From assembly GCA_937921485.1 (NCBI GenBank), contig CAKZSV010000016.1:334-64333 (forward strand): 64,000 nt of DNA, given 5' to 3'. Made by a program: the position numbers and the translations under genes. The notes below the pieces were generated by a model. It had not been told where the DNA came from and made no database searches. It saw only the letters and a program-made list of their open reading frames with translations. Source of the stretch: an uncultured bacterium (lineage in GTDB: Bacteria > Spirochaetota > UBA4802 > JAGODF01). Shown here in pieces: positions 10,549-38,523 of this stretch (the first letter of the stretch is position 1; the number at the start of each line of letters is the position of its first letter).

Positions 10549-12546
10549 TCAAACGACAGCCATTCCATATCCCGGAATCTTTTTTCCGAGAACCCGCTTT
10601 GCTTTCGCGGTGTGATTGAGCACAATCTTCAATTCCTTTCCTTCCGTATCGGTTCTTCGTATCACTTCAATGCCCATGCCGTACCATTTCGGTTCAAGGC
10701 CTGCCGTTTTGAAAATCTTTCTGTAGAGGAAGAAAATGCCCAAATCATTCAATGAGGTGCCGAGATAATACACGCGGCCGTTGCCGAAATTGTTCACGGT
10801 GATGCAGGGAGATCCGCGGTAAAACTTTTTCCGGTCGGTGTATCGTGCAAGCACTTCGGCGCTGCCGGGCTCCAGAATATCCGCCCATACCTCGCCTTTT
10901 GCGGGAATAAGGCCGATGCGTATGCCGACTTTTTCCTGGCCCAGAGCCTCGAATTCGCGGATTTTCACGCCGGCAAGTTCGGTGAAAAGTCCCGGGAATG
11001 CTTTGCGTATTGTGTGGTTGTTCATATCGCGCGTGCCGCTTCGCCAGCCGAGGATGAGCGTGCCGCCGTCGCGCACCCATTCAGCGAGGTCTTCGACGAA
11101 CTTCGCATCAGCCATCTGATACAGCGGGAGCGATACTATCTTGTAATTTTCAAGCGCAATATTGTGCGGCGTGCGCACGTCTGCATTTATGTTGAAAAGC
11201 ACGTACGGGGCGAAGTGTCTGGCCAGTTCCATCGCGTAGCCGAGCTGCAAATACGGGGAGGGAGTATAATAAAGCCCCTTCGAAAGATATTGCCGCTTTA
11301 TGATGCGGATATTGTCCATCTCATACACAAGGCATGCCTTTGCCGTAACGGGTTCGCTTCCGATGCGGTTGAAAAGCGCGCGATGATTTTTTATGTTTTC
11401 CCTGATGGCGGCATAACGCTTTGTCTCTTCATTATCCGGCTCGATGATGCCGTGGCAGAGCTGCTCCTGCCCGTACGGTACGGTGCGCCAGCGGAAATAG
11501 GAAATGCGGTTTGCGCCGTGCGCAATTGCCTGGTTTGTCCATAACGCCATCTGTGCTTCCGGTGGGCGATACCCCAGGCATGCGTGTCCCTGAAAACCGG
11601 AGATCTGTTCGAGCACCGAGAATGCCCGGTTTTCTTTGAGGCCGCGCACGTGCGAAAGGATGAACGAATTGAAATAATAGGGCAGGGGTTCTTTCATATC
11701 GCCCCACACCGGATAGTTGTCGTAGCCGACGATATCGAGTTTCTGAAAAAGCTTCTGCCAGTCCACCACCGTGCCAATTGGCGGCATATACAGATTGGTG
11801 GTGATGAATTGCTCCCGGCGCACGTGCGCGCGGAGAATGTCCATCTGCCGATGGGCAAACCTTACAGCACTATCGGATGAAAACCGGTCGTAATCCAGCA
11901 GCAGACCCGGGTTGAGGTCAGTACTGAACGGCTCACGCGCCACAGGAGCCTGTTCGAATTGTGTGAGCATGCGACCCCAGAATACATTTCCCCAGGCCTC
12001 ATTGAGCGCGCCAATCGTTTTGTATTGTGCTTTCAGCCACCCATGCCATGCCTTTTTACAGTGGTCGCAGACGCAGATATCGCTTCCCTCATGCGCAATT
12101 TCATTGTCGATTTGCCATCCCGCCACAGCCGGATGTGAGCCGAAATGCTTCGCCACCGCTTCGACGATTTTATCGGCATGTTTTAAGTAGGTGGGAGAAT
12201 TGAGACAGGCCTCGCGGCGGCTTCCCCAATCCTTTATTTTTCCGGAAGGATGAATCCGCACCACTGACGGATCCGTCTCGTAGAGCCATGCGGGCAGGGT
12301 TGCGGTGGGCGTTCCTAAAATCACCGAAAGCCCTTCAGCTTCGCAGAGCTTCAATACTTCATCGAACAGAGAAAAGTCGTACCGGCCCTTTTTCGGTTCA
12401 AGGAGCGCCCAGGCGAATTCCATCAGCCGCACCTCGTCTGCACCCATGGCGCGGATGCGTGCAAGGTCGGATTTCCACAGGGATGTATCCCACTGCTCGG
12501 GATAGTAGACCACGCCGAATTTCACTCCTCGATGCGTTCTGAACAT
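10549..12546 (-). CDS. Beta-galactosidase, GH42
   Basis: YYPEQW, EFAWALLEP, WQIDNE, FRWR...GQEQ; trimerisation domain; no signal peptide. Confidence 0.95.
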   Translation of the reverse strand: MFRTHRGVKFGVVYYPEQWDTSLWKSDLARIRAMGADEVRLMEFAWALLEPKKGRYDFSLFDEVLKLCEAEGLSVILGTPTATLPAWLYETDPSVVRIHPSGKIKDWGSRREACLNSPTYLKHADKIVEAVAKHFGSHPAVAGWQIDNEIAHEGSDICVCDHCKKAWHGWLKAQYKTIGALNEAWGNVFWGRMLTQFEQAPVAREPFSTDLNPGLLLDYDRFSSDSAVRFAHRQMDILRAHVRREQFITTNLYMPPIGTVVDWQKLFQKLDIVGYDNYPVWGDMKEPLPYYFNSFILSHVRGLKENRAFSVLEQISGFQGHACLGYRPPEAQMALWTNQAIAHGANRISYFRWRTVPYGQEQLCHGIIEPDNEETKRYAAIRENIKNHRALFNRIGSEPVTAKACLVYEMDNIRIIKRQYLSKGLYYTPSPYLQLGYAMELARHFAPYVLFNINADVRTPHNIALENYKIVSLPLYQMADAKFVEDLAEWVRDGGTLILGWRSGTRDMNNHTIRKAFPGLFTELAGVKIREFEALGQEKVGIRIGLIPAKGEVWADILEPGSAEVLARYTDRKKFYRGSPCITVNNFGNGRVYYLGTSLNDLGIFFLYRKIFKTAGLEPKWYGMGIEVIRRTDTEGKELKIVLNHTAKAKRVLGKKIPGYGMAVV

Positions 12547-12551
12547 GGCAT

Positions 12552-14573
12552 TTACTCCATGATGATTTTGATGAGATGAACTCCCGGAATGACTTCCTTG
12601 CTTTCAGCATGAGCGCCATTTATGGAATATTTTCCTGCTTTTGCTACGCGCACGAATACCGCGTTCGGCCTTTGCGCGCTGCGATGCAGTTTCACGATGA
12701 AATTTTTTCCAGATGCCTTGAACGAATCAATTTCGCTTGAGGGGAAGATATGCCCCGATGAACCCGCAAGCGACGGCATTCTTTCGGAAAGCCGGAGAAA
12801 GCACTGCGTTTCGTGAGGACGAAGCACGAAGGTCGATGTTCCCGGCACAAAATCAACTTCGCCCGTGCGCGCGTCATTCCGGCAAAAGGCGCCGTCGGGG
12901 AGCGTACACTCGGCAGTTTCATCGCGCAGGTTTGCCCGGACAAAATACGAAAGATTGCCGATGGAAAAACGAATTTCGTACATGCCGCTGTCGTTACGCA
13001 CGGATTCGATGTTTTTAGAACGCAGAGGAAAATGCGCACGATAGTAACGAAGCGTGTTCTCGGAATAGTGTGCCACATCGTCCGAGGTGAACACCAGCCC
13101 GCCGAAAATATTATTTAAAATAAAAAGCGTATTTTTCTCATCGGGAGAAAGTGAATTGTTTTCATCGCGGAGAATGAACACGTCGGGGTCATTGAAAAAC
13201 GCATGGCCGCTCAAATGCCGCCGCCCGATGGTGCTGGTAAGCGAGTGCTTCGTGTCAACGCGCTCGCGGTAGCGCATGAATTTTAAAAGGCGGTCTTCCC
13301 ATTTGAGCGCCACATCTCCGCCTATGCGGCAGTATTCAACAAGTCCAAACGCGGGACCGAGAGGCACGCCGCAGCCCAGAATTTTCTTTCCGCGCACGCA
13401 GCGGCGGAGCAGCTCCATGGCATCGCGCATGATTTTTCCGCGGCTTTTGCCTTTCCTGGGAATGATTGCCGCGGCGTAGAGGAAGTCGAGCTTCACCATG
13501 TCGAAGTTCCAGTCGCGAAGGACTGCGGCAAAAACATCTTCGATATAGCTTCGCGCCTGATCGTGGTAGATGTCGAGCGCGTAGAAATCGCCGCTCCAGC
13601 CGGGGTTCCATCCCGCGGCGATTGGATTTCCCATTTCGTCTTTTACCAGCCAGTTTTTGTGCTGGGAAAAGAGCTGTGATTTTTTTTCGCAGATAAACGG
13701 CGCAAGCCAGAGCCCCGCCATATATCCGGCTTTATGAATTTCATCGGCGATTTTTTTCATGCCATCTGGAAATTCCGGTTTAATCGAACGCCAGTCGCCC
13801 ACCGCGGTCTGATATCCATCATCGATTTGTATGATGTCCAGAGGGATATTGTTTTCGGCAAGCGCGCGCGCATTGCCGAGGATGATGTCTTCAGAAATCT
13901 TTGTATAATAATTATACCAGCTTGTCCAACCGGTGGTCACGTCCGCGCGTGGCTTCAGATTGCAGAGATTGAAATAGCTTTCGAACACTTTTTGCTCTTC
14001 GCCGGTGGCGATGAACACGTCAAGCACAGGAAGATTTCTGTCAAGTTCAAGTCCCTCGCAATCTTTGATGATGGTGAATGCGTGATTGCGCGTCTGGTAT
14101 TGAAAAATCGTATAGCCTTCACTTTCTGAAAGCGAGCCGATAAGCGCAATGGCAGTATTTCTCCGGATATAGGTGTAGGTGTGGGAATGAAATTCACCCT
14201 CCTTTCCCGAATAGGGATAGAAATGAATGTCGCCGTAGCGGTGCATTTTAATCAGGCGCATGATGCCCCGAAGCGGCAGAAGTTTTTCGCCCACGGCAAA
14301 CTCGCGGCTGTCGGTCCATGACTGATAGCCATTGCAATAGACGGTATCGGTTTCAAGGAAATTGAATGCGCATGAAAGATGAAGCGCTCGAAGCACAATG
14401 TTCCCCTCGGGGCGAAGCTGAATTTTCAGGCGCTGTCCGCCCTGCTCCGGTTTTATGGAAGATACGGCAGTGAGTCCCTCGAATTTGTTGTCCTTGCCGA
14501 TGACGATGTTTCCTTCGTATTCGCGCCTGCGGAATTCGTAGCGCACAAAGCCTTCTTTGATGGTGATATTCAT
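12552..14573 (-). CDS. Alpha-galactosidase, GH36
   Basis: GWTSWY, QIDDGYQ, GLWLAPF, VKLDFLY and CRIGGD motifs. Confidence 0.92.
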   Translation of the reverse strand: MNITIKEGFVRYEFRRREYEGNIVIGKDNKFEGLTAVSSIKPEQGGQRLKIQLRPEGNIVLRALHLSCAFNFLETDTVYCNGYQSWTDSREFAVGEKLLPLRGIMRLIKMHRYGDIHFYPYSGKEGEFHSHTYTYIRRNTAIALIGSLSESEGYTIFQYQTRNHAFTIIKDCEGLELDRNLPVLDVFIATGEEQKVFESYFNLCNLKPRADVTTGWTSWYNYYTKISEDIILGNARALAENNIPLDIIQIDDGYQTAVGDWRSIKPEFPDGMKKIADEIHKAGYMAGLWLAPFICEKKSQLFSQHKNWLVKDEMGNPIAAGWNPGWSGDFYALDIYHDQARSYIEDVFAAVLRDWNFDMVKLDFLYAAAIIPRKGKSRGKIMRDAMELLRRCVRGKKILGCGVPLGPAFGLVEYCRIGGDVALKWEDRLLKFMRYRERVDTKHSLTSTIGRRHLSGHAFFNDPDVFILRDENNSLSPDEKNTLFILNNIFGGLVFTSDDVAHYSENTLRYYRAHFPLRSKNIESVRNDSGMYEIRFSIGNLSYFVRANLRDETAECTLPDGAFCRNDARTGEVDFVPGTSTFVLRPHETQCFLRLSERMPSLAGSSGHIFPSSEIDSFKASGKNFIVKLHRSAQRPNAVFVRVAKAGKYSINGAHAESKEVIPGVHLIKIIME

Positions 14574-15742
14574 AATTGCACCTCAGATAAGATTCCCACA
14601 CCGTCCGATGTGGTGCATTGATAAAATTCGGCAGAAAGTCCGGTTTTTTCCTGATATACCTTCCCGACGTGTTCAATGAGTTTTTCGGCGGCATCCCTTT
14701 TCACCAGCGCGATGGCGCATCCCCCAAATCCCGCGCCGGTCATCCGCGCGCCGATGCAGCCTTCCGCGCTTCGTGCCGCGCTTACAAGGGTATCGAGTTC
14801 AAGTCCGCTGACTTCATAATCGTCTTTCAAAGAGGTATGCGATGCGTCCAGAAGCCTTCCCAGTTCTAAAAGATTTCCTTTTTCAAGCGCTTCAACTGCC
14901 GCCTTCACGCGAAGCTGTTCGGTGATGACATGCCGCGCGCGTTGTGCGATAACGGGTTCTCGGATGTCGTGCAAATCATCTTCCACTGCCTCAACAAGAT
15001 ATTTGATATTCTTTTTTTTTTGAATAATTTCAAGCGCTTTCCGGCATTCATAAAGCCGCTCGTTGTATTTCGATTCCACCAGGTTGCGCGGCTTTTTCGT
15101 GTTCATGATGAGGATGAGATACTCGCCAGGCAGAAGGGGCACATGCCTGAACGTGATATCCGAGGTATTCAATAACAGCGCGTGGTCTTTTTTGCCCAGC
15201 GCGATGCTCATCTGGTCCATAATGCCGCACTGCACGCCGATGAACTCGTTTTCCACGCGCTGGCACAGCAGCGCCATCTCGGTGCGGGAGGCATCGTTCT
15301 TTAGCATCGAAGGCTCAAGGATGGCGGCCATAAGGCATTCGATGCATGCCGAAGAAGAAAGGCCGGAGCTTTTCGGAAGCGTGCTTTCAAGGTAGATGTG
15401 CATGCCCGGCGGATGGTATCCTGCTGCTTTCAGATAGCGCACAATGCCGCGCGGAAAATTTCCCCAGGGAGTTGATGCATCGAGAAGAATTTCTTTTGAA
15501 AGCGCAATGCGCACTTCCTGCTCGGGAAAATCAGCGGAGCGAACGACCACCTCATCGCCATCGGTTTCTTTTGCAACTGCATACATGCCCAGGCTGATGG
15601 CCGCAGGAAACACAAGACCGCCATTGTAGTCGATATGCTCGCCAATGATGTTCACCCTGCCGGGGGAAAAGTACACCTTTGCGCCGTGCGCCGGACCGAA
15701 GTGATGCTCAAAGCGCTCAATCGTGTGCGTTATATCATGCAT
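14570..15742 (-). CDS. galK: Galactokinase
   Basis: PGRVNIIGEHIDYNGG, GLSSSA, CGIMDQ, GARMTGAGFGG. Confidence 0.97.
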   Translation of the reverse strand: MHDITHTIERFEHHFGPAHGAKVYFSPGRVNIIGEHIDYNGGLVFPAAISLGMYAVAKETDGDEVVVRSADFPEQEVRIALSKEILLDASTPWGNFPRGIVRYLKAAGYHPPGMHIYLESTLPKSSGLSSSACIECLMAAILEPSMLKNDASRTEMALLCQRVENEFIGVQCGIMDQMSIALGKKDHALLLNTSDITFRHVPLLPGEYLILIMNTKKPRNLVESKYNERLYECRKALEIIQKKKNIKYLVEAVEDDLHDIREPVIAQRARHVITEQLRVKAAVEALEKGNLLELGRLLDASHTSLKDDYEVSGLELDTLVSAARSAEGCIGARMTGAGFGGCAIALVKRDAAEKLIEHVGKVYQEKTGLSAEFYQCTTSDGVGILSEVQL

Positions 15743-17183
15743 GGCCCTGCCATTTCATTGCGCGCGTTACCACATTGTAGGCGCCATCGTAGGTGCCGAT
15801 TTTTTTCTGCTTCACGATGTGCTCGCAGTACATCGAAAGCAAATCGTCCTCGTTGACCAGCAAATCGATTGCCTGAACAATGAAATCCCCGGTTTCGCAT
15901 TCGAGCGTGCCGTCGCCGACCTCGGAGCTTCGGATGGCGCCCCATGCCTCATGTCCGCCCACGCGCTTGATGAGAAGCTTCGGCACCGGATAAAACGCCA
16001 GCTCGCTTGGCTTGGTGATGAGCACATCAGAGGCGCGCATGAGACAATTGGTGGTATAGACTGCCGCGAAGATATCGCGGTTGAAGAAAAGATGCGTGCC
16101 GGAAACATCGCGCGAAAGCGCCGTGCTTGCAAACGAATGTGCATCCTTCCATTCAAGATAGCTTGATGATGAAAGGGAGAGGGAATCGATTTTTTTCTTA
16201 ATCGCTTCATACACATTCTGGTGGTCGCCGCAATTGACAAAAAGCATCGCCGCATCTTTTTGTATGTAGGGCGCAAGATGTTCGATGATGGCTAACGTGA
16301 GGTCGAGCTGCGCGCCGGCACCGCCGATGGAGATGAGAAAGCGCCGCGGTTTTTTCGATTTCATGCGGCGGATGCGTGATGCGCAATCTTTCTCGATGTT
16401 TGTCACCAGCTCGTGGTCGATATTGTGCCCCACCATGGCGATGTCGGTCGCGGGAATAGGCGAAAGCGCCTTTCCTTTTTTGTCCATGTTCTTTAAGGTG
16501 CGATAGCCCATATACACCGACGGCGTCTGAACGCAGTGCAAAGCTCCTTCGGTGAGATGAAGCCCCAAAGGCCAGTTGTCGGGAATCATGTTTATCACGC
16601 GCGATTTGTTCGCTTTCAGCGCTGCCAGCGCCGCCCAGGCGTGGGTGGCAATGACGGGAAGCTCATCAGGCAAATCGCGAAAGAGCGGCGCCATGAGCTC
16701 GCACATATAGGTGAATTCCACATTGGTGGAAAGCTTCTTCATGCCTTCTGCCATCAGCGGTTCCCAGTAGAGGGTGTTGAAAAGCGCGCTTTTCTGCGAA
16801 AGGCGCGAACCGAGCGAATAGAGCTTTTCAATATGACGCACGATTTTTGCGCCGGTGCTGTCCTCGTATGCAAGGATGTCGAGCCAGTAGGGCGTGATGC
16901 CCATGGAATGCGCGGCCGAGGCGATTGACATCGCCGGCCGGTAATGCCCGTAGCCCATGCGGATGGTGCCGAGCACCAGCGCTTTTTTCGTTTTAAGCGG
17001 TTCCCCCCACGGACCGAGGATCAGGTTATGAATACCAAGGATTTTCCCGAGAGTTTGGTTGGCTTCCGCCGTATAGGGAAAACGTCGCGTGTCATCGTGC
17101 TTGAATTTTTTTGCGAAGCTGTCGCGCTTGCGGATTGCTCGCCGTTCAATTGCTGACGGAATATTATTGTTGAATATTTTCAT
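15735..17183 (-). CDS. GT-B fold protein resembling GT28 MGDG synthase/UgtP
   Basis: MGYGH, ATH, IPD, GGAG and MRASDVLITKPSE match the layout of UgtP/MGD motifs; first gene of the galK operon. Confidence 0.6.
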   Translation of the reverse strand: MKIFNNNIPSAIERRAIRKRDSFAKKFKHDDTRRFPYTAEANQTLGKILGIHNLILGPWGEPLKTKKALVLGTIRMGYGHYRPAMSIASAAHSMGITPYWLDILAYEDSTGAKIVRHIEKLYSLGSRLSQKSALFNTLYWEPLMAEGMKKLSTNVEFTYMCELMAPLFRDLPDELPVIATHAWAALAALKANKSRVINMIPDNWPLGLHLTEGALHCVQTPSVYMGYRTLKNMDKKGKALSPIPATDIAMVGHNIDHELVTNIEKDCASRIRRMKSKKPRRFLISIGGAGAQLDLTLAIIEHLAPYIQKDAAMLFVNCGDHQNVYEAIKKKIDSLSLSSSSYLEWKDAHSFASTALSRDVSGTHLFFNRDIFAAVYTTNCLMRASDVLITKPSELAFYPVPKLLIKRVGGHEAWGAIRSSEVGDGTLECETGDFIVQAIDLLVNEDDLLSMYCEHIVKQKKIGTYDGAYNVVTRAMKWQGHA

Positions 17184-17271: not shown

Positions 17272-17300
17272 AATATATCCATAAGGATTTTTCTTGTCAA
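17272..17300 (-). promoter_or_regulatory. sigma70 promoter of the gal operon with embedded operator
   Basis: TTGACA (17300-17295), 17 nt, TATATT (17277-17272). The motif TATATCCATAAGGATTTT lies at 17274-17291. Confidence 0.7.
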
Positions 17301-17351: not shown

Positions 17352-18338
17352 ATGAAGGAAATACTTGTCACCGGCGGTGCGGGCTATATCGGAAGCCATG
17401 TGGTGAAAATGCTGGCTGAGCGAGGGTATCATCCCATCGTGTTTGATTCGCTGGAAAATGGTTTTGCGGAATTCGTGCGCGGGCATGAACTGGTGCAGGG
17501 AAATATCGGCGATTATGCACTGCTTGCGGATATTTTTCGAAAAAGAAACATCGCATGCGTGATGAATTTTGCATCGTACATCGCCGTGGGAGAATCGGTG
17601 CAGCTTCCGCTGAAATATTATGCCAATAATGTGGCGAACACGTTTGAGCTTTTCCGCGCGATGCTCGACTCTGGGGTGAAGCGCTTCATTTTTTCATCGA
17701 CGGCGGCGGTGTACGGCTATCCGGAGGAGGTACCCATCAGGGAGAACGCGAAGCTTTCGCCAATCAATCCCTACGGGCGAACGAAGCTCATGATTGAGCA
17801 GGCACTGCAGGATATTGATGCGGCATCCGGGATGAAATTCATCGCGCTACGCTATTTCAACGCGGCAGGGGCGGATCCAGGCGGCAACATCGGCGAAAGC
17901 CATACCCCCGAGACGCATCTGATTCCGCTTATCCTGCGTTCCATTTTGGAAGACGAGTACACTATCACGGTGTTCGGCACGGATTACCGCACGCACGATG
18001 GCACCTGCATCCGCGATTATATTCACGTCAACGATCTTGCCGATGCGCACATTTTGGCGCTTGAGACGCTTGTATCAAAAGGTGAAAGCGCCGTGTATAA
18101 TCTTGGCAATGGCCGCGGATTTACCGTGCGCGAGGTGATTGATGCGGTGAAGCGGGTTACAGGAAAAAACCCGAAGGTGAAGGAAGGCCCGCGGCGGCCG
18201 GGAGATCCCGATGTGCTGGTGGCATCATCCGAAGAAGCGATGGCGGAACTCGGGTGGAAACCGCAGATGGCGGAGCTTGAGACAATCGTGGAAACGGCGT
18301 GGCGGTGGGAACGGCAGAGAAAGCGAAAGGGGTGGTGA
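17352..18338 (+). CDS. galE: UDP-glucose 4-epimerase
   Basis: TGGAGYIGSH, FSSTAAVYG, YGRTK, DGTCIRDYIHV. Confidence 0.96.
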   Translation: MKEILVTGGAGYIGSHVVKMLAERGYHPIVFDSLENGFAEFVRGHELVQGNIGDYALLADIFRKRNIACVMNFASYIAVGESVQLPLKYYANNVANTFELFRAMLDSGVKRFIFSSTAAVYGYPEEVPIRENAKLSPINPYGRTKLMIEQALQDIDAASGMKFIALRYFNAAGADPGGNIGESHTPETHLIPLILRSILEDEYTITVFGTDYRTHDGTCIRDYIHVNDLADAHILALETLVSKGESAVYNLGNGRGFTVREVIDAVKRVTGKNPKVKEGPRRPGDPDVLVASSEEAMAELGWKPQMAELETIVETAWRWERQRKRKGW

Positions 18339-28465: not shown

Positions 28466-30280
28466 TTAATCCTTCAATGAAAGTTTTCGAAGCGCTTCAT
28501 CGGTGGGAATGCCATTTTCATCCCAGCCGCGAAGCCTGTAGTAGCAATCGAGTTGCGCGCGCAGAGCTTCGTCCGGCACGTATCGTCCCTTCGCGGGGCC
28601 GTCGGGAATCGGTTCGTTCATCACGCGCGCGGGAAGCGTGTCGCGCTCACGGGAAACGCCGCGCGCAATATTGATACACCGTTCGAGCGTGTAGATGCGC
28701 GCGCCCGCTTGTGAAAGATCTTCTACGCTGAAATCCCATCCGGTGAGGAAGTTGAATGCCCCGGCAAGGGATTCGTTGATGAGCCTTCCAAAGCCGCGCT
28801 CCATGGTGAAGCGGCACATTACCAGAGAGTCGCCGAGCGCGGTGAAGTTCTGGCTTTCCACGCAGTATTTCGCGATTTCTTCCGCGCTCATTTCAAAGTC
28901 CGGCTGAGGATAGCGCGGGCGCGCGTCGTGATGGCTTCCGCCGCGGTTTGAGGTGGCATACGCCAATCCCATCGTGCGTATGCCGCGCGCGGAGTGCCCG
29001 GCGATTTCAAGGCCTTTTACCGAATAGAGATACTCGTGTGCGTTTTTGCCTATGTGCGCGGCCATCTTTTCCGAGCCAAGCGATAAAAGCTCACCAGCCC
29101 CGCGGCGGTAGGCGGTATCATTGATCAGGGATATAAGTGCCTCACCATTTCCGAAAAGCATCGTTGTGCCAAAGAGCTTTTCATCGCAAAGCCCTTTTTC
29201 AAGGCATTCCGCCGCGAACGCGAGCGTCACGCCCATGGAGATGGTATCAAGTCCGAGTTCGTCGCAGAGGGTATTTGCATTGAAAAGCGAAACGATGTCT
29301 GCATTATCGCACATGGTGGCCAGGGCGTAAATGCTTTCGAATTCGGGCATCTTCACATTCGTGCCTGCAAATCTTCCCGAGGGGACCATCACCAATTTGC
29401 CGCACGCAACGGGACAGAGGCGGCAGGCGATATTTTTTACTTTGAATTCGCGCGCCATGCGCTCGCCGCTTATCGCTTCCCACTCGGGGAAAACTTCGTA
29501 CTGATTATTCCTGGAAGCGAGCATCCCGCGGTCGTTAATGATTTTCACCAGCACCGGCGTGCCAAGCTCAATGAGTTCTTTCGTCTGGTCACGAAGTATG
29601 GGAAGGCGGCTTTTTAAAAATTCAGACAGGCGTTCGCGATGAGCGATGTCGGCTTTTTCGTTTCCGTTTACAACTATCGCTTTGAGGTTTTTTGAACCCA
29701 TGACCGCGCCCAGACCGAGCCTTCCGGCCGCACTGATGCGCGCTCCGCTCGCGATGACGGCCGCGAAAGGAACGAGATTTTCACCTGCCGGCCCAATCAC
29801 CGCGCATTCGATGCTGCTGCCTTCGCGTTCTTTCAGCGCCGCGATTGCTTTCGAGGTTTCCAGCCCCCAAAGGGTATCTGCTTCATGGAAGCTTGCGCCG
29901 CTTTCATCAATGCGCAGATAGACGCGTGAAGAAGCGTTACCGGTGATTGCGATTGCATCAAAACCGGTTGCTTTAAGCATGGACGCGAAGTTTCCGCCGA
30001 AGTTGGAATCGCCAAAGAGGCCGGTTTGGGGGGAGATTGCCGCCGCATGCGCCCTTCCGGAACCCCAGATGGGGGAACCGGTAAAGGGGCCGCTTGCAAA
30101 CACAAGGATGTTTTTTTCTGAGAAGGCATCATCGGCAGGCGATACTTCGCGGCCGATGATATCGGCAGCAAAGCCATTTCCGCCGATGAATTTCTTCGCG
30201 TACGCCTCGTCGAATTTTTCGATACGCGAAGATTGCGAAGAAAGGTCGATGCGCAGCATCTTTCCGAAATAGCCATTCAT
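28466..30280 (-). CDS. Aldehyde:ferredoxin oxidoreductase (W/Mo-bisPTT AOR family)
   Basis: IGPAGEN, GRLGLGAVMGSKNLKA, CRLCPVACGK, DELGLDTIS, DSLVMCRF, YYRLRGWD. Confidence 0.94.
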   Translation of the reverse strand: MNGYFGKMLRIDLSSQSSRIEKFDEAYAKKFIGGNGFAADIIGREVSPADDAFSEKNILVFASGPFTGSPIWGSGRAHAAAISPQTGLFGDSNFGGNFASMLKATGFDAIAITGNASSRVYLRIDESGASFHEADTLWGLETSKAIAALKEREGSSIECAVIGPAGENLVPFAAVIASGARISAAGRLGLGAVMGSKNLKAIVVNGNEKADIAHRERLSEFLKSRLPILRDQTKELIELGTPVLVKIINDRGMLASRNNQYEVFPEWEAISGERMAREFKVKNIACRLCPVACGKLVMVPSGRFAGTNVKMPEFESIYALATMCDNADIVSLFNANTLCDELGLDTISMGVTLAFAAECLEKGLCDEKLFGTTMLFGNGEALISLINDTAYRRGAGELLSLGSEKMAAHIGKNAHEYLYSVKGLEIAGHSARGIRTMGLAYATSNRGGSHHDARPRYPQPDFEMSAEEIAKYCVESQNFTALGDSLVMCRFTMERGFGRLINESLAGAFNFLTGWDFSVEDLSQAGARIYTLERCINIARGVSRERDTLPARVMNEPIPDGPAKGRYVPDEALRAQLDCYYRLRGWDENGIPTDEALRKLSLKD

Positions 30281-30306
30281 ATCAGTGAATCCCACATTGT
30301 GATGTC

Positions 30307-30335
30307 AATATAAATCCATAACGATTTATTGTCAA
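30307..30335 (-). promoter_or_regulatory. sigma70 promoter of the AOR-DASS-TK-RpiB operon with embedded operator
   Basis: TTGACA (30335-30330), 17 nt, TATATT (30312-30307). The motif TAAATCCATAACGATTTA lies at 30311-30328. Confidence 0.75.
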
Positions 30336-30577
30336 GGGTTTTATGATACTTTTTTTCATGGGCGGTTTTTTTCAATAAAAAAATGATGGATAGGTGAAAA
30401 ATGGATGATGTGGTGTGAGGGCAGGAGCATAGGTGCTTCTGGTATTCAATCCTTCCATGCTCCCGTTCGTACATTGTGTGATGCCGCATTGCAGAGCGCA
30501 TAACTGCGATGATTACATCTATCATATAGAAAAATCCTTCTGTTCGGATTAAAAATTATTGTCTGTTTCAAAATAAT

Positions 30578-30690
30578 GGGCACTTCTAAAAACCGCTTTC
30601 GTCATTAAAAATAGCATCATAGAAAGCGGTTTTTTCCCATACATTATGCTCAAAAGGGAACATCCTTTAAAACAGTTTTAAGAAGTTCCC
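30578..30690. mobile_element. MITE-like repeat, copy 2 (inverted relative to copy 1)
   Basis: GGGCACTTCTAAAAACCGCTTTC...GAAAGCGGTTTT...GGGAACATCC...TTAAGAAGTTCCC. Confidence 0.8.
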
Positions 30691-30717
30691 TTATAATTTA
30701 AATTTAACGGAGGGGAT

Positions 30718-32641: not shown

Positions 32642-34633
32642 CTACATATCCCTCACCTTCTCAAACACCACCGAGAAATCCGAGCCGCTTCGGTAAAACA
32701 CCGGCGGATAGCCGATGGGCGCATCAACAGTGTGCGTGCCTGCCGGATATGCTTTGCCGCTCCAGAGATGAATCCACACATCATCGGGCAGTATCACCTT
32801 CCAGCGCCGCTTCCCTTTGCGCAGCACCGGCGCCACGAGCAGATCGCGGCCGTAGAGATATTCGTATTGCACATTCAGAAACTTCGCATCGTCATAATGC
32901 ATAAAAATGGGACGTACAGGCGGAAGACCACTCTCTTGATATTCGTTTGAAAGATGCATATGATAATCCCGCAGTGCGACAAAGATGCGGGTGAAGCGCG
33001 CAAAATGCGCAAGTGTTGCCGCATCGGAATCGAATTGCCAGTTGGAGGCGGGGCGATTTCCTTCGTGTGTGCGCATTGTCTGCGTGAAGGCAGCCTGTTC
33101 GGTCCATCGCATGAACAGCTCTTTGGAGCGGCGAATCCACCCGACGGTGGTATAGCCGCCGATGTCCGAATGATGATACCCGATGCCGCACATCCCGAGC
33201 GAAAGCGCTGCGGGAATCACGGTTGCAAGCCCGTCGTCGAAGCTCCAGTTGACGAGCTGATCGCCCGCCCAGATGCTTGCGGCGTACCGCGAACTTCCCG
33301 TGAAACCTGCGCGCATAAAATAAAAAATGTCGTTTTCTTTTTGTGCTTCGCGCACCGCCTCGAAGTTTGCTTTTGCCCACATGGCAGGATAGCGGTTATG
33401 ATACCGCTCGGCATTTTCTTTTGAAAAGAGAATTGCATCGGGGGGAAGCGCTTCGCCGAAATCGGCCATCCATCCAGAAAGGCCAAGCGCGATCATCTCC
33501 TGTGTGATGACGCTTTTATACCAGGTGCATGCCGAGGGATTGGTGAAATCGATCATGCCGGCGAAAAATTCGCCGAAATCTTCGGTGTAGGTGCTTCCAT
33601 CGGCGCGCAGCACTAAAAACCCGCGGTCAGCGGCTTCGCGGAAAAGCGGCGCGTCAGTTGCAAGGTAGGGATTGATGTATCCCAGAAAACGGATGCCGCG
33701 CTCGCGGTATTCCTTAATCTTTTCATCCAGCTTTGGGTACAGCGCTTTATTCCATTGCCAGTTCCAGAACAGCCGCTTGCCGAATGAGGTCATGCGCATG
33801 CCTTCCCAGTCCTGTGCCCACACCGCGGCAATTTTCGCACCGGCGGAAATCGCGTTTTTCAATTTCGCGTCGATTACCCCGGTGCCGCCCTGCATGCCGA
33901 GTATTGCGCCGCCATAGACCCAGTGCGGAAGCGGCCGTTGCCGGCCGACAAGCGCGCTCAGTCGCTGCAAAAGCGCCGGACGGGAAGGAGCAGTTCCAAG
34001 GATGATATTTTCCGGAATATGCCGGAAATGCAGAATGTGATAATCTTTTCCGGTGAAATCGAACTCCGCGTAGGCGGACTCATCTGAGTGGCAGAAATAC
34101 TGCGCTGAAGAGATGAAGGTCGGCTGATTGAAATACGTGGTGTACCATGTACCGCCTGCGTCGGCCTTGAGATTTGCCAGAAACGTGATGAGGTCTTTGC
34201 CGCGGCCGACGCCCTGTTCCTGCACGAAGATGGGAACGTTTTTTCCCTTTAGATTAAAATACGTATATTGCTCGCCGCAGCCATAAATTCCTTCGCCTGC
34301 TTCTCCGCACAGTTTCAGCCAGAAGCGGTTAATTTCCGCGTCGGCGCAGGAAAAGCGGATTTCCAGCGTGCCGTTTTTTTCTTCGGCAGTCATGGTGAGA
34401 ATATCTTCAAATGAAAGGACCACCCGCGTGGGGGTTGATTCTTTCACCAAAAATTGCGCAAGCGGCTTTTTTTCGCGCACGCTATCGCGGATTTTAAAAT
34501 GGCTATAGCGCATGCGGTATTCCGCCGTACCTTTGCCTGATGAAATGCAGGGATTTTTTTCATTGTGAATAAGAAATGTTCTGCCCTGAAAGCCGAGTTC
34601 AAAGCCGTGATTGTGCGCATTGAATTCAATCAT
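32642..34633 (-). CDS. yihQ: Sulfoquinovosidase, GH31 (YihQ-type)
   Basis: EQGVGR, WAQDWEGMRMTSFGKRLFWNWQW (Q/R/W sulfonate-binding residues), GWMADFGE nucleophile motif, WAGDQ, HSDIGGYT. Confidence 0.9.
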   Translation of the reverse strand: MIEFNAHNHGFELGFQGRTFLIHNEKNPCISSGKGTAEYRMRYSHFKIRDSVREKKPLAQFLVKESTPTRVVLSFEDILTMTAEEKNGTLEIRFSCADAEINRFWLKLCGEAGEGIYGCGEQYTYFNLKGKNVPIFVQEQGVGRGKDLITFLANLKADAGGTWYTTYFNQPTFISSAQYFCHSDESAYAEFDFTGKDYHILHFRHIPENIILGTAPSRPALLQRLSALVGRQRPLPHWVYGGAILGMQGGTGVIDAKLKNAISAGAKIAAVWAQDWEGMRMTSFGKRLFWNWQWNKALYPKLDEKIKEYRERGIRFLGYINPYLATDAPLFREAADRGFLVLRADGSTYTEDFGEFFAGMIDFTNPSACTWYKSVITQEMIALGLSGWMADFGEALPPDAILFSKENAERYHNRYPAMWAKANFEAVREAQKENDIFYFMRAGFTGSSRYAASIWAGDQLVNWSFDDGLATVIPAALSLGMCGIGYHHSDIGGYTTVGWIRRSKELFMRWTEQAAFTQTMRTHEGNRPASNWQFDSDAATLAHFARFTRIFVALRDYHMHLSNEYQESGLPPVRPIFMHYDDAKFLNVQYEYLYGRDLLVAPVLRKGKRRWKVILPDDVWIHLWSGKAYPAGTHTVDAPIGYPPVFYRSGSDFSVVFEKVRDM

Positions 34634-34644: not shown

Positions 34645-35961
34645 TTATTGAATAATTTTCCAGCCGTTTATGCGCCCGAATATTTCCAGAGGACGAATGA
34701 AATCGCCATACGCCATCGACGCGTGATGTGCGATGCCATTGTACACGACTTTTTCGAGCACTTCTTTTACCGGAGCGTCAAATGTTACCTTTACGTAGGT
34801 TCCCCGTAGTTTTTTGTCCATCGGAATTCCATGTGCCCGCTGTAAAAAAATGCGCTGGGCATCTCCGGAGTTATCGAAGCGCAGGATGGAGATATCGCCG
34901 GTTTTCAGCACGAAATCGGCAGTGACGCCTTTCCCGCCGGCGAAATAGGTATCGAGCGAGCGTACGCATTTCCCGTCCCAGAGATTGCAGGGCGCCACGC
35001 CGCAGTGCCACAGTAGCGCGCTATCTTCATCGAAATCGACCTGGGAAAAATCGAAAAGATACGGCGTTTCCGCACCAAGCGCTTTGTGCGCCAGCATTGA
35101 AAGTGCACCCTCTACATCGCCTTCGCAGGCTAAAATTGCGCTTTCGGACTGCACCAGCGACATCGCCGCGCAGGGAGAGGTGCCGTAGCGTGCGGCAAAC
35201 TCCGGCCAACAGCGAATGGCAAGCGCCGAAAGGTTTTCCTGTTTCATAAATGCGTCGATGCGCGCAGCCAGTATCGCAGTTTTTTTTGCCTGTTCTTCGG
35301 TGATGCCGCTCGTATCGAAGGTCTTTTGCACAATATCATTCCAGCGCGATACCTCACTTTCGGAAACAGGCTGTTCGTACACATCCAAAAGCTCGTAGTG
35401 GTCGATGAGCACGCCGAAGCGCGCGTATGCTTCAAGGTCGCGCACGCTCAGATTGAAAAAACCGTGTGCGCGGAATCCCGCAATGCCGATATGCGCCGAC
35501 GAAAGCGCTTTTCGCACGCGAATCGCATCGACCCAGTCGGTATCTATTGAGCGCGACACAATGGCATGATAATTGCGCACGCCTGCTTTGTAGAGGTTGG
35601 ACGCATTCAAATTCACGCCGCAGACGGAATTGAGCCGGATTTTCCCCCCATCGTAGGGAAGCTCGGGAAGTCCCCACAGAAGCACGGGCTGGGGTAGAGC
35701 TTTCTTTAGTTCAAGCAGCAGATGGCCAAGGTGGAATGTGCCGCTTATGCAGACCAGCCCATCGATGTGTTTTTCTGAAAGGAAACGCGCAGCCTTTTTT
35801 GCATCGTCAATTTCGATGACAAGCTCCGGCCAGATGGCGCATTCCGCGCTGGGTAATGTTGCAAGGTCTTTTTTTATCCGGTTGAAAATCTCGCCCGCGG
35901 CATGGTAGTCGAAGGTTTTACGTGCCAGGCAGACGATGCCAAGCGTGATGTGCTGTTTCAT
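34645..35961 (-). CDS. L-fucose/L-arabinose isomerase family; putative SQ isomerase (SqvD-like)
   Basis: RCWPEF, ACEGD, WHCG, GIAHH; lies between the SQase and the GPH transporter. Confidence 0.85.
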   Translation of the reverse strand: MKQHITLGIVCLARKTFDYHAAGEIFNRIKKDLATLPSAECAIWPELVIEIDDAKKAARFLSEKHIDGLVCISGTFHLGHLLLELKKALPQPVLLWGLPELPYDGGKIRLNSVCGVNLNASNLYKAGVRNYHAIVSRSIDTDWVDAIRVRKALSSAHIGIAGFRAHGFFNLSVRDLEAYARFGVLIDHYELLDVYEQPVSESEVSRWNDIVQKTFDTSGITEEQAKKTAILAARIDAFMKQENLSALAIRCWPEFAARYGTSPCAAMSLVQSESAILACEGDVEGALSMLAHKALGAETPYLFDFSQVDFDEDSALLWHCGVAPCNLWDGKCVRSLDTYFAGGKGVTADFVLKTGDISILRFDNSGDAQRIFLQRAHGIPMDKKLRGTYVKVTFDAPVKEVLEKVVYNGIAHHASMAYGDFIRPLEIFGRINGWKIIQ

Positions 35962-35974: not shown

Positions 35975-37456
35975 TTATGTATTCATCAAGCGTTCGTATG
36001 ATTGTCCCGTAAGCTCTTCGCATACGGCACGGGTGCGGCTGTCAACCTCGCTTTTCTTTCCGCCGCTTTTCAGCCGCTCGATTTCTGCGATGAGCACGGC
36101 ATGCGTTTCGGGCGTGATATTGAATTTCCGCGCGATGATGATGCCGAGTACAATGAGCAGAAGCGGCAGGGAGAAGAAAAGGATGCGGAGCCAGAAAAGC
36201 GTGGTTTCCGCCTGCGGCTGGTTGATAGAGCGGCTGATACCGTCGATAATCTCAATAACAGGCTTTTGATAGCCGATGATGTCGAGCATTATGCCGATGA
36301 AGAAAATTGTCAGCGCGTTGACGATTTTACGGATGAAGGTCATCGCGCCCGCGTAGGAGCCCGCGCGCTTTTTGCCGGTAATCATCTCATCGACATCGGT
36401 CACCGAAGGAAGAATTGCCCAGGGCACCATGGTGCCGGCCGAAAGTCCGATGCCCATGAGTCCCGATACGGCAATGATGAGGTAAGGCGATGTTTCTTTG
36501 TTGAAAAATGCAGTGAGGATAAGCCCAACTCCCCAGATGCACAGTCCGACGATGTAGGCAAATCCCTTGCCTTTTTTATTGGAGATGTAAACATATACCG
36601 GAAGCATTGAAACCTGGGCCAGAAGCATCGCGCCGACGCAGGTGGCAAAGAGCTTTTCATTGCCAATATAATACGTGAGATAATAAATAAAAAGCGCCAT
36701 GAGTACATCCATCGCCATATACGAAGCGATGTACATTCCCATGTGCAGGCGAAACGAGCGATTGTGTCGCATGGAAAAAAGTTCCGAGAAAAAGCCGGAA
36801 ATAGTAAGCGAAGGAGCAGACTCGCAGGATTCCATCTCCCATGTGCCGTGGAAGACGATGATCCAGGGAATCATGTAAAAGATGCCGAAGATGACCGACA
36901 TCACCAGAAAGCCTTCGGCTTTATTGTGCGCGAAATAGGTATCGATGATAAGTTTGGGCACCACAGCGCTTACCAGCGATGAAAACTGAGAGCACATCAT
37001 GCGCGCGCCAGAGAGCCGCATCCGGCTTTTGTAATCGCAGGTCATTTCGGCATTCAAAGCGGAATAGGGCACCATGACCATGGTGAACGCGGTGCGGAAA
37101 AGAATGAAGGCGGTTACATAATACAGGAAAGAAAGATAGATGTTATCGAACCGCACGGCCACCCACAGCATGATAAACGTAAGCGCTACCGGCAGCATGC
37201 CTGCGAGAAAATAAATTCTGCGACGGCCGAAGCGGCTTTTCGTGCGGTCGGAAAGATAGCCCATCAGCGGGTCGGAAATGGCATCCCATATTTTTCCGGG
37301 AAGCATCACCAGGCCTGCAAGCGCGGGAGGAAGCCCGACAATGTCGGTGAGAAAGAACATGAAAAGAAGGCTTATGATGAGAAATGAACCGCCGCCGTAA
37401 AAATCGCCCACGCCGTACGCTATGAGATGATACCATCGAAGCGGTCTGTTATCCAT
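35975..37456 (-). CDS. GPH (MelB-like) MFS sugar-glycoside symporter; putative SQ/SQ-glycerol importer
   Basis: AYGVGD, WDAISDPLMGYLSDRT..RFGRRR, VPYSAL. ATG 8 nt after GGAGG. Confidence 0.92.
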   Translation of the reverse strand: MDNRPLRWYHLIAYGVGDFYGGGSFLIISLLFMFFLTDIVGLPPALAGLVMLPGKIWDAISDPLMGYLSDRTKSRFGRRRIYFLAGMLPVALTFIMLWVAVRFDNIYLSFLYYVTAFILFRTAFTMVMVPYSALNAEMTCDYKSRMRLSGARMMCSQFSSLVSAVVPKLIIDTYFAHNKAEGFLVMSVIFGIFYMIPWIIVFHGTWEMESCESAPSLTISGFFSELFSMRHNRSFRLHMGMYIASYMAMDVLMALFIYYLTYYIGNEKLFATCVGAMLLAQVSMLPVYVYISNKKGKGFAYIVGLCIWGVGLILTAFFNKETSPYLIIAVSGLMGIGLSAGTMVPWAILPSVTDVDEMITGKKRAGSYAGAMTFIRKIVNALTIFFIGIMLDIIGYQKPVIEIIDGISRSINQPQAETTLFWLRILFFSLPLLLIVLGIIIARKFNITPETHAVLIAEIERLKSGGKKSEVDSRTRAVCEELTGQSYERLMNT

Positions 37457-37528
37457 GTACACGACCTCCTTTTGGATTTTATCTGGATACTATATCATCA
37501 ACCCATAACCCGTGTGAAGCATAAAACG

Positions 37529-37558
37529 CATATAAATTGATAACGATTTAAATGTCAA
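37529..37558 (-). promoter_or_regulatory. Promoter of the MFS-isomerase-SQase operon with embedded operator
   Basis: TTGACA at 37558-37553; the motif TAAATTGATAACGATTTA lies at 37533-37550; TATAT-type -10. Confidence 0.72.
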
Positions 37559-37649: not shown

Positions 37650-37758
37650 GCCTGGGAGCGAAGTGGCCTTTCCGCAATACTCTTGACACATTTCGTCGTT
37701 TTTTCCAGGCTGTATGCGGGTGTACGGTATAGTATTTAATTCATCACGGAGAGATAAT

Positions 37759-38523
37759 ATGATAACGACAAAAATTGAAGACGGCGTGCTTTTAGCGGAA
37801 TTCTGCAATGGCAAGTACAACTCCATTACGCTTGAAACGCTGCAGCAATTGCGGGAAGCGGTCCAGAAAACAAACTCTGATCCTTCTATAAAAGGCATTG
37901 TGCTCACGGGACAGGGTAGGGTTTTTTCATCGGGGTTTGACCTGCCCACCTTTATGGGGTTTAAGGACCTCAAAGAAGTCACGGATTTTTTTGAACAATG
38001 GGCCGAACCTGTTTTTATGGAATTTTTCATGTGCACCAAGCCCACGGTGGCGGCCATAAACGGGGCGGCCATGGCGGGCGGGCTTATTCTGGCCACCGCG
38101 TGCGATTATCGCGTGGCAAAAAAACATCCGAAAATTCAGCTCGGCATGACCGAAATAAAAATCGGCCTTGGGCTTTCCGTGGTGCAGTCGGAAATCATGC
38201 AGTTCGGGTGGGACAGCGCGAAAAAATTCCGCGATATCATGTACAATGGCGAGCGCTATGGCGTGGAGGATGCATTGAAACTCGGCATTGTGGACGAACT
38301 TGCCGAAGAAGACAGGCTTTTACCGCGCGCGAAAGAAATCGTGACGAAATGGTATGATAATCCCGGCAAGGCTTTCGGCATGCTGAAGCTCGGGCTTCGC
38401 CGGCCCATCTATGACCGGATGAAGCATTATCTTGAAAATTCAAACTGGAAAGACGGCTTCAACTGTTTCTTCAATCCCGAAACGCGCGCGGCAATCGATT
38501 TCGTGATAAAGATGATGGGGTGA
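37759..38523 (+). CDS. Enoyl-CoA hydratase/isomerase (crotonase), possibly 3,2-enoyl-CoA isomerase
   Basis: FSSGFDL, PTVAAINGAAMAGG, LGMTEIKIGL. Confidence 0.88.
   Translation: MITTKIEDGVLLAEFCNGKYNSITLETLQQLREAVQKTNSDPSIKGIVLTGQGRVFSSGFDLPTFMGFKDLKEVTDFFEQWAEPVFMEFFMCTKPTVAAINGAAMAGGLILATACDYRVAKKHPKIQLGMTEIKIGLGLSVVQSEIMQFGWDSAKKFRDIMYNGERYGVEDALKLGIVDELAEEDRLLPRAKEIVTKWYDNPGKAFGMLKLGLRRPIYDRMKHYLENSNWKDGFNCFFNPETRAAIDFVIKMMG

Follow-up and report, generated by a model that had tools for sequence, protein, structure and literature searches.

A sulfo-transketolase locus with aldehyde:ferredoxin oxidoreductase and DASS genes beside a galactoside operon with a similar promoter palindrome in an uncultured spirochaete

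In the sulfo-transketolase (sulfo-TK) pathway of sulfoquinovose (SQ) breakdown, as presented in excerpts of two accounts (PMC12890257, PMC13219744), SQ is isomerized to sulfofructose, SqwGH moves a C2 unit to glyceraldehyde-3-phosphate, SqwI isomerizes sulfoerythrose, and a second round of SqwGH leaves sulfoacetaldehyde. The excerpts name two fates of this compound, namely conversion to isethionate by the iron-type alcohol dehydrogenase (Fe-ADH) SqwF with export by the TauE-type SqwE, or conversion to sulfoacetate by SqwD and SqwKL, and they place the pathway type of Clostridium sp. MSTE9 in strict anaerobes including Spirochaetes. Here we analyze a stretch of 64,000 nucleotides from the metagenome-assembled genome (MAG) of an uncultured spirochaete (assembly GCA_937921485.1, contig CAKZSV010000016.1, positions 334 to 64,333; subsequently designated the window). 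Judged from its genes, the window carries a near-complete sulfo-TK locus in two operons, in which an aldehyde:ferredoxin oxidoreductase (AOR) and a divalent anion:Na+ symporter (DASS) take the place of the described endings, and an operon for galactoside use lies nearby. On balance, we lean towards the view that the galactoside operon and the sulfo-TK locus with its AOR/DASS ending belong to one regulon under a ROK-type regulator and serve the use of lipid head groups.

Three further systems invite comparison. The sulfoacetate-forming sulfo-TK variant (Chu et al. 2023, as excerpted in PMC12890257) employs a CoA-acylating dehydrogenase and an ADP-forming ligase, which make ATP. An AOR has been met with in the sulfonate catabolism of Desulfovibrio sp. 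DF1; according to excerpts of PMC6278857, it is inducible by 2,3-dihydroxypropane-1-sulfonate (DHPS) and, produced in E. coli, was inactive; no clear role was assigned to it. The yih cluster of E. coli (sulfo-Embden-Meyerhof-Parnas pathway; see also PMC6278857) has the sulfoquinovosidase YihQ, two GPH carriers (YihO as importer, YihP as exporter) and one SQ-responsive repressor, and a kinase/aldolase route leads to DHPS. Our literature search returned no paper joining aldehyde ferredoxin oxidoreductase with sulfoacetaldehyde, where the supplementary cluster tables of Liu 2021 and Chu 2023 could list AOR-bearing clusters; among papers on ferredoxin oxidoreductase and sulfoquinovose, the DF1 AOR alone looked relevant, as judged from the listing (PMC6278857).

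Genes were named by Pfam, NCBIfam and PDB sequence searches, Pfam being run on 51 open reading frames (ORFs) of the window, 9 of which gave no family. The MAG (G000; 84.7% complete, 3.15-Mb assembly; the window is G000:C16:334-64333) was compared with three other species of its genus (G001, 97% complete; G002; G003), with further families of the same order (f5 and f7 among them), with a sample of 61 genomes of the order, and with the gene neighborhoods of 9 + 16 related loci. A first-pass annotation had read the region as one for the utilization of thylakoid glycolipids. The genes it listed (GH42, GH36, sulfoquinovosidase, galK, galE, importer, crotonase and the protein it called MGDG-synthase-like) are all found in their places by Pfam or PDB searches, and the same region holds seven that it omitted, i.e. 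SqwG, SqwH, SqwI, an SftI-like isomerase, AOR, DASS and TauE. The genes of the SQ locus are as follows.

22841..23650, minus strand: TauE/SafE-type sulfonate or sulfite exporter, SqwE-like (Pfam TauE 4.4e-30; also in G001)
24677..25201, minus strand: RpiB-type isomerase SqwI (Pfam LacAB_rpiB 2.2e-37; NCBIfam RpiB)
25155..26126, minus strand: transketolase C-terminal half SqwH (Pfam Transket_pyr, Transketolase_C)
26114..26989, minus strand: transketolase N-terminal, thiamine pyrophosphate-binding half SqwG (Pfam Transketolase_N 1.8e-54)
26990..28462, minus strand: DASS transporter, putative sulfoacetate carrier (Pfam Na_sulph_symp 3.4e-51)
28466..30295, probable start 30280, minus strand: tungsten-type AOR (Pfam AFOR_N, AFOR_C)
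32642..34633, minus strand: YihQ-type GH31 sulfoquinovosidase (PDB 8r56 7.8e-226, 5aed 5.2e-222, 6pnr 3.8e-201)
34645..35961, minus strand: SftI/SqvD-like SQ isomerase homolog of 438 aa (NCBIfam NF048012, E 9.7e-56, residues 10-430)
35975..37462, minus strand: GPH (MFS_2) symporter, putative importer of SQ or SQ-glycerol (Pfam MFS_2 1.6e-71)

Genes are present for each sulfo-TK step as far as sulfoacetaldehyde, plus TauE. The GH31 enzyme is predicted beyond reasonable doubt to be a sulfoquinovosidase: it reaches 886.6 bits with NCBIfam PRK10426 (cut-off 553), matches E. coli YihQ (5aed) over the full length and has Q274, R287, W290, D391, D458 and Y494 identical in the aligned 5aed. The counterparts of Q274/R287/W290/Y494 and of D391/D458 in E. 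coli YihQ are, we assume, the sulfonate-binding and the catalytic residues. A YihQ gene occurs in 20 of the 61 related genomes. The SftI-like protein, which has no Pfam family, reaches 189 bits where the equivalog model demands 700, and hence counts as a homolog rather than a certified equivalog; copies 58-65% identical to it stand between importer and YihQ in six f7 loci. The symporter is MelB-like and lies slightly below the cut-off of the gph model TIGR00792 (219.3 versus 231.35 bits). The transketolase is split into two adjacent overlapping genes, SqwH being 62-77% identical to the copies in SQ clusters of relatives; a second SqwG-like copy in the MAG (G000:C35; 45% identical) was taken as the housekeeping one. 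SqwI, which also scores 96.9 bits with the NCBIfam model of erythrulose-4-phosphate isomerase, has copies 60-73% identical after SqwH at seven related loci. In addition, the order importer-SftI-YihQ ... DASS-SqwG-SqwH-SqwI is kept in all six f7 loci compared. Importer, SftI-like isomerase and YihQ would provide for uptake of SQ or SQ-glycerol, release of SQ and its conversion to sulfofructose, and SqwGH together with SqwI would move two C2 units onto glyceraldehyde-3-phosphate with sulfoacetaldehyde left over. The set shares the SQ isomerase, SqwGH, the RpiB-type SqwI and a TauE-type exporter with the cluster of Clostridium sp. MSTE9 (excerpts of PMC12890257 and PMC13219744), but lacks the Fe-ADH SqwF within the cluster, has AOR and DASS instead, and is divided into two operons with toxin-antitoxin genes and miniature inverted-repeat transposable elements (MITEs) between them.

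The AOR gene heads the second operon and is followed by DASS and SqwG with gaps of 3 and 0 bases, and by overlapping genes for SqwG, SqwH and SqwI. Its product aligns with the Pyrococcus AOR (1aor) over the whole length (2e-116, from residue 6) and retains C291/C294/C298 (CxxCxxxC), C494, E320 and H455, which places it in the AOR family. We take the cysteines to be [4Fe-4S] ligands, and E320 and H455 to be active-site residues. DASS scores 227.7 bits with TIGR00785, above the cut-off, and precedes SqwG immediately in 4 of 4 genus species and 6 of 6 f7 loci. AOR, DASS and SqwG are adjacent in all four genus species, in G002 and G003 even though importer, SftI and YihQ are on a different contig; the neighbors of AOR in these two are unrelated genes (msrAB; sua5 and aroK/aroC). 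This AOR subtype (E<=1e-150) was found in 19 of 401 genomes sampled across the phylum, all in the order of our MAG, and a metagenome scan with AOR gave only 2 weak fragments. Neither SqwF nor SqwD plus SqwKL was found: none of the families Fe-ADH, aldehyde dehydrogenase and ADP-forming CoA ligase turned up in the ORFs scanned from 7.4 to 41.7 kb. Since AOR is linked in 4 of 4 genus species and f7 keeps DASS without linked AOR, gene order indicates that AOR was recruited to the SQ operon within the genus, DASS being the older member of the cluster.

Judged by operon position, the substrate of AOR is inferred to be sulfoacetaldehyde. AOR would replace SqwF or SqwD/SqwKL, converting sulfoacetaldehyde to sulfoacetate with delivery of the electrons to ferredoxin, the sulfoacetate dianion would exit via the DASS carrier, and TauE might provide a side route for export of isethionate or sulfite. 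Such an ending has in common with the SqwD/SqwKL variant, as excerpted, the proposed sulfoacetate product and the lack of SqwF. In contrast to the dehydrogenase and ligase of that variant, a single ferredoxin-linked tungsten-type enzyme would yield low-potential electrons and no substrate-level ATP. The resemblance to Desulfovibrio sp. DF1 is that an AOR-family gene is encoded with sulfonate-catabolic genes in an anaerobe; the DF1 pathway, however, runs from DHPS to sulfolactate, with sulfolactaldehyde as the proposed substrate and the NAD-dependent SlaB also present (excerpts of PMC6278857). In f7, the position of AOR between YihQ and DASS is occupied by an ORF of 333-336 aa (L032:10021-11025, L033:9891-10892, L035:9604-10608, L045:9196-10206), which Pfam assigns to the metallo-beta-lactamase (MBL) fold in two of these four loci. 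The protein of L032 is paraoxonase- or lactonase-like in PDB searches (best match 8zxg, 3.1e-19). By its placement it may have an undescribed role in sulfo-TK, these clusters showing no known sulfoacetaldehyde enzyme.

The two SQ operons and the galactoside operon start at promoters of like build, in which a 16-bp palindrome (AAATCS-N4-SRATWT) lies in the spacer between the -35 and -10 boxes and its tail runs into the -10 box.

30307..30335, minus strand: AOR-DASS-SqwGHI promoter (-35 TTGACA 30330-30335; core AAATCGTTATGGATTT 30312-30327; -10 TATATT 30307-30312)
37529..37558, minus strand: importer-isomerase-YihQ promoter (-35 TTGACA 37553-37558; core AAATCGTTATCAATTT 37534-37549; -10 TATATG 37529-37534)
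17272..17300, minus strand: galactoside operon promoter (-35 TTGACA 17295-17300; core AAATCCTTATGGATAT 17275-17290; -10 TATATT 17272-17277)

Comparison of the intergenic regions gave the layout common to the importer and AOR promoters as TTGACA, 2-3 bases and AAATCGTTAT(G/C)(G/A)ATTTAT. A search pattern, AAATC-S-N-TA-N-S-R-AT-W-T, was composed after both SQ sites and a third similar site had been viewed. It matches exactly at only five loci of the 3.15-Mb assembly, i.e. at the two SQ promoters, at the galactoside promoter, before a DUF4867 gene on contig C30, and on contig C31 between an Omp85-like gene (DUF5982 + Omp85) and a metallophosphoesterase gene, 2 kb from a ROK gene. With one mismatch allowed, 52 strand-wise matches were obtained versus 12-23 in five shuffles. 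DUF4867 (SftX/SqvB) accompanies sulfoglycolytic clusters as an accessory protein, with a role given as unknown in the excerpted text of PMC11968277; all four genus species keep its promoter site. Because the pattern had been widened after the galactoside site was seen, we also built an independent matrix from 14 sites of SQ clusters of other families only and applied it to the MAG. The AOR site ranked 2nd (22.7), the importer site 5th (20.8) and the DUF4867 site 6th (20.4); the 1st-ranked match lies inside a coding region, and the 7th lies 60 bases before a second GPH transporter gene on contig C48. This second transporter (98% identical in G001, 87% in G003 and 75% in the f7 genome G016) keeps its site in both genus members; that of G016 is perfect. 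The AOR promoter site is retained in G001, G002 and G003, and the importer site in G001.

In other families of the order, the palindrome accompanies SQ clusters that have a NagC/Mlc-like ROK gene as neighbor. All five f7 loci inspected have a gene of 396-407 aa divergent from the importer, the ortholog of which in our MAG is the ROK gene on C31 (9616-10899; 42-47% identical; Pfam ROK 3.6e-22); NagC and Mlc models align with its product from residue 29-31 to 367-378, with scores below their cut-offs. This co-occurrence of regulator and site across families predicts a coherent SQ regulon with a ROK-type regulator. Like the NagC/Mlc repressors, the protein has about 400 aa, a ROK domain and a full-length alignment, and the sites are AT-rich palindromes overlapping promoters; unlike them, its predicted targets are sulfo-sugar and galactoside genes. 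The regulator of E. coli yih is of the DeoR type, not ROK. The yih parallel extends to YihQ and to the carriers, in that two GPH carriers of our MAG likewise have the operator, whereas E. coli takes the kinase/aldolase route.

Next to the ROK gene on C31 lie the exported metallophosphoesterase/5'-nucleotidase-like gene and the Omp85-like gene (6001-10899; loci L059 and L063). Upstream of the importer promoter (37581-37650) and of the DUF4867 promoter (C30:9599-9718), tandem copies of GCTCTGAC(A/C)CC were observed, which precede the DUF4867 promoter in all four species. Counting 79 in the genome and being clustered, they are probably a repeat resembling repetitive extragenic palindromic sequences rather than a specific site.

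The galactoside operon and the divergent galE gene consist of the following.

10549..12546, minus strand: GH42 beta-galactosidase, last gene of the operon (Pfam Glyco_hydro_42 1.5e-110, plus trimerisation domain)
12552..14573, minus strand: GH36-type alpha-galactosidase, TmGalA-like subgroup, clan GH-D (PDB 6lcj 2.8e-50, 1zy9 5.7e-47)
14570..15742, minus strand: galactokinase galK (Pfam GalKase_gal_bdg, GHMP_kinases N and C domains)
15735..17183, minus strand: DUF6937/DUF6938 protein of 482 aa with a GT-B fold, heading the operon (Pfam 3e-97, 3e-88)
17352..18338, plus strand: UDP-glucose 4-epimerase galE, divergent from the operon (Pfam Epimerase 2.3e-58)

GH42 membership is borne out by the presence of both the catalytic and the trimerisation domain; the closest solved GH42 enzymes score only 1.6e-83, and therefore no substrate is inferable. 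The GH36 enzyme reaches 46.3 bits with Pfam Melibiase (cut-off 27), and its KLDFLY and RIGGD (R-x-G-x-D) stretches align with their counterparts in 6lcj; these stretches presumably hold the nucleophile and the acid/base. As the first-pass annotation had noticed, the glycosidases are without evident signal peptides: the N-termini of GH42, GH36 and sulfoquinovosidase are hydrophilic, judged by eye, and all three enzymes look cytoplasmic. GH36 and GH42 would release galactose in the cytoplasm and galK would phosphorylate it. The galK gene shares 4 and 8 bases with its two neighbor genes, and the order galE-DUF6937/8-galK is conserved in G001-G003 and at locus L049. GalT (PF01087) of the Leloir pathway was not found in G000, G001, G002 or G003; order-wide, galK is present in 38 of the 61 genomes and GalT in only 2. 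All 19 of the 61 genomes that have DUF6937 are galK-positive.

Several features connect the galactoside operon with the SQ regulon. Its promoter is built as the SQ promoters are (TTGACA, 17-base spacer, TATATT), and its 16-mer core and that of the DUF4867 promoter are one and the same sequence. When the intergenic region between galE and DUF6937/8 was aligned for the four genus species, 27 of 28 columns were invariant over -35 box, spacer and -10 box while the flanks diverge, and the 17-base spacer is identical in G000 and G003. The operator-like site is thus unchanged even in G003, where the galactoside proteins are just 65-81% identical and the galactoside cluster lacks SQ genes within 15.6 kb on its galE flank. 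From the sequences, we regard co-regulation of the galactoside operon with the SQ operons as about an even bet. If it holds, the SQ regulon of this genus has taken in the galactoside operon, and breakdown of SQ and of galactosides would be switched on together, as expected if the cell feeds on the glycosyl-glycerol head groups of phototroph membranes.

Other evidence speaks against this connection and allows for the two modules being independent neighbors, with the galactoside genes serving the use of raffinose-family sugars or galactans under a regulator of their own, a recent, accidental juxtaposition in an island moulded by MITEs and toxin-antitoxin genes, and a promoter palindrome that belongs to another factor or merely reflects promoter conservation; we hold this to be rather unlikely as a whole, if by no means negligible. 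With the other-family matrix, the galactoside site ranks 23rd (15.0), where the five top scores of each of five shuffles range from 12.2 to 19.3, and is thus not significant genome-wide; with a matrix from the genus's own non-galactoside sites it ranks 8th (21.3; shuffle maxima 17.4-21.4). Its half-sites read ATCC/GGAT in place of the ATCG/CGAT of SQ sites in f7. Against this difference stands that the ATCC/GGAT form also precedes the DUF4867/SftX gene in 4 of 4 species, that all four have a hybrid AOR site, ATCG/GGAT, and that the spacer stayed identical in G000 and G003 despite differing flanks. A second palindrome conserved in four species, TTTTTCTTGAAAAA (about 17219-17236), falls within the galactoside operon's 5' leader (minus strand); it could be a second operator, a leader hairpin or the site of another factor, and for independent modules it could be the true galactoside operator. 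A similar palindrome of a T-run and an A-run is seen in the AOR upstream region (30366-30385). Further points against a common regulon are that the operon itself has no importer gene, that raffinose or galactan would suit GH36 and GH42 just as well, these being the usual enzymes for such substrates, and that galK and the DUF6937/8 gene are scattered in f7 with no strong operator site. The modules are collinear only in G000 and G001 (YihQ 93% identical), with the SQ locus in the window bracketed by MITE copies. G002 has its galactoside and SQ genes spread over three contigs, no SQ gene turns up in G003 within the 15.6 kb that adjoin the galactoside cluster on its galE side, and at the G035 and f7 loci no galactoside gene is near SQ genes. 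On the linkage criterion of the first-pass annotation itself, the modules are accordingly unlinked in relatives; within the genus they are perhaps not separately regulated. Turning to the sulfo-TK ending, AOR might be a general aldehyde scavenger riding in the operon, with an unlinked SqwF-like Fe-ADH making isethionate for export by TauE and DASS carrying other cargo, which we consider doubtful. Our MAG has five AOR-family genes and, on contigs other than that of the window, four Fe-ADH genes, two of them behind an AOR paralog; owing to these Fe-ADH genes and to TauE adjoining the locus, an isethionate branch is possible. The operon with the paralog (C74:4510-9719; L062) comprises the AOR paralog, an Fe-ADH, a 180-aa protein and a second Fe-ADH. 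A weak operator-like site (18.7) about 280 bases upstream makes it a candidate isethionate-forming or aldehyde-handling branch of the SQ regulon. In f7, the clusters have DASS but no AOR, the AORs (50-55% identical) are on a different contig from the SQ cluster in 9 of 9 genomes, the one locus scanned has AOR beside DUF2889 and an acyl-CoA synthetase, and no operator lies near three of these AORs, four such loci having been retrieved (G016, G027, G032 and, from f5, G020). Moreover, the DF1 enzyme, the only tested AOR from a sulfonate cluster as far as the excerpts of PMC6278857 go, was inactive. What argues against mere scavenging is that AOR, DASS and SqwG are linked in 4 of 4 species within an operator-bearing operon, that no Fe-ADH is near any SQ gene here, and that methanol, propanediol and lactaldehyde enzymes are what the two checked Fe-ADHs resemble, no sulfonate enzyme being nearer in the PDB list.

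The alternative closest to the first-pass annotation extends the favored reading to whole lipids: an integrated locus for the thylakoid glycolipids monogalactosyldiacylglycerol (MGDG), digalactosyldiacylglycerol (DGDG) and sulfoquinovosyldiacylglycerol (SQDG), including the crotonase, a role for an MGDG-synthase-like protein, and lipases elsewhere under the same operator. The three glycosidases do correspond to the three head groups, the galactoside and SQ promoters have an operator-like site in common, and operator-bearing genes elsewhere include that of the Omp85-like outer-membrane protein. For the protein said to be MGDG-synthase-like, the DUF6937/8 protein, Arabidopsis MGD1 is indeed the best fold match. 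This match is no better than those to many other GT-B enzymes, as detailed below, and a synthase has no obvious role in breakdown. The crotonase gene (37714..38523, plus strand: crotonase/enoyl-CoA hydratase family, Pfam ECH_1 4.5e-37), which the first-pass annotation had suggested for unsaturated acyl chains, is tied to neither module by any evidence: it has no counterpart of at least half its length beside the SQ or galactoside clusters in 25 of 25 related loci, and neither a CoA ligase nor any other beta-oxidation gene was detected by Pfam between 7.4 and 41.7 kb. Nor did a glycerol gene emerge as linked to the locus, though no search aimed at such genes was made. That the window holds no lipase was borne out as far as Pfam reaches, no lipase or esterase family appearing among its 51 Pfam-scanned ORFs (9 of them without any family). 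For a lipase elsewhere in the regulon, we considered a secreted alpha/beta-hydrolase on contig C26 with a one-mismatch site upstream and found it unsupported: the site is kept only in the near-identical G001 and is absent before the 84% identical ortholog of G003, and its paralogs showed none. We therefore think an integrated lipid locus quite unlikely. In sum, of thylakoid-glycolipid scavenging the handling of lipids and acyl chains found no support, and the SQ pathway, the shared operator-like site and the enzyme classes speak for the head groups; what is left of the idea, and partly supported, is that the head groups with SQ and with galactose are used together, to which the one shared operator and the enzyme classes point. 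A bolder proposal, a phototroph head-group regulon in which one ROK repressor governs the genes that take up and cleave SQ- and galactosyl-glycerols and the AOR sulfoacetate ending charges ferredoxin, we regard as possible, if less likely than not.

The DUF6937/8 protein has its true start at 17183, resulting in 482 aa; homologs have 478-500 aa. Its structure model (pLDDT 89.1) has the GT-B fold. Foldseek found 174 PDB matches at E<=0.001, nearly all GT-B enzymes among the roughly 40 matches listed, with MGD1 (4wyi; E 1.2e-6, 13% identity) ahead of WecB, OtsA, WaaG and MurG. A PDB sequence search gave no match, and the GT28 domains MGDG_synth and Glyco_tran_28_C were absent in Pfam. The protein thus shares with plant MGD1/GT28 the GT-B fold of two Rossmann domains, and a distant Atlas cluster has Glyco_tran_28_C in 33% of its members; it differs in the low identity, the missing GT28 match and about 100 additional residues. 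As far as the model goes, it is a GT-B protein and not demonstrably an MGDG synthase. The family (3764 homologs at E<=1e-5 among those scored) carries no annotated function. We also considered DUF6937/8 as a substitute for GalT, which was not found in five spirochaete genomes having the galE-DUF-galK order. This idea was dropped as unsupported: 18 of the 38 galK-positive genomes among the 61 relatives lack both GalT and DUF6937, and in f7 the DUF6937/8 gene is not close to galK.

The region of 10.5-38.6 kb looks like an accessory island flanked by housekeeping genes, with prfB on one side and yceG, tgt and the dcw cell-wall/division cluster on the other (Pfam), and it contains the two catabolic modules among toxin-antitoxin pairs and MITEs. 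Between galE and the SQ locus, Pfam identifies a chemoreceptor and an exported tetratricopeptide repeat protein; a pair of small ORFs beyond galE, preceding the chemoreceptor, we take to be DUF4160/DUF2442-like. The order within the SQ locus is TauE, MNT/HepT pair, RpiB-type isomerase, transketolase halves, DASS, AOR, lipoprotein gene, HEPN/MNT pair, GH31, the 438-aa protein and the MFS_2 transporter, followed by the crotonase on the opposite strand. Three MITE copies flank and divide this half of the island.

22603..22724, no strand assigned: MITE copy bordering the SQ locus on the left (inverted repeats I1-I4)
30572..30694, no strand assigned: MITE copy that separates the AOR promoter from the lipoprotein gene at 30892-31704 (repeats D2, D4, I2, I3)
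38528..38624, no strand assigned: MITE copy bordering the SQ locus on the right, directly past the crotonase gene (repeats D2, D4, I1, I4)

No Rfam family reached its gathering score within 8000-41000. The stretch from the AOR promoter to the HEPN/MNT pair is AT-rich (GC 0.40) and holds the lipoprotein gene (270 aa, no family), of which a 50% identical copy adjoins galE in G002; a short ORF at about 30716-30871 in the same stretch has a lipoprotein-like signal (by eye, coordinates approximate). Downstream of the HepT gene, its 3' end is duplicated as a 58-base direct repeat (24477-24534 and 24614-24671; 74% identical), apparently left over from a duplication or from another toxin gene. A gene for a 161-aa protein without Pfam family is located at 47134-47592, with a fragment at 30430-30525. 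Such genes adjoin two operator-bearing genes and were considered as regulators. We discarded them as mobile or repeat genes, the MAG having about 100 copies, 45-95% identical and often at contig ends; probably the gene belongs to a mobile element and is a cause of assembly breaks.

If the AOR ending is true, it would constitute a third, energetically distinct ending of the sulfo-TK pathway. Being ferredoxin-linked, it would alter the redox and energy balance of SQ fermentation, with H2 or an ion gradient rather than consumption of NADH, and sulfoacetate rather than isethionate would be the cross-fed product. Tungsten enzymes would gain a defined natural substrate. Likewise, a regulator joining SQ and galactoside genes, if confirmed, would hint genetically, for the first time, that bacteria exploit the head-group sugars of thylakoid lipids as one resource.

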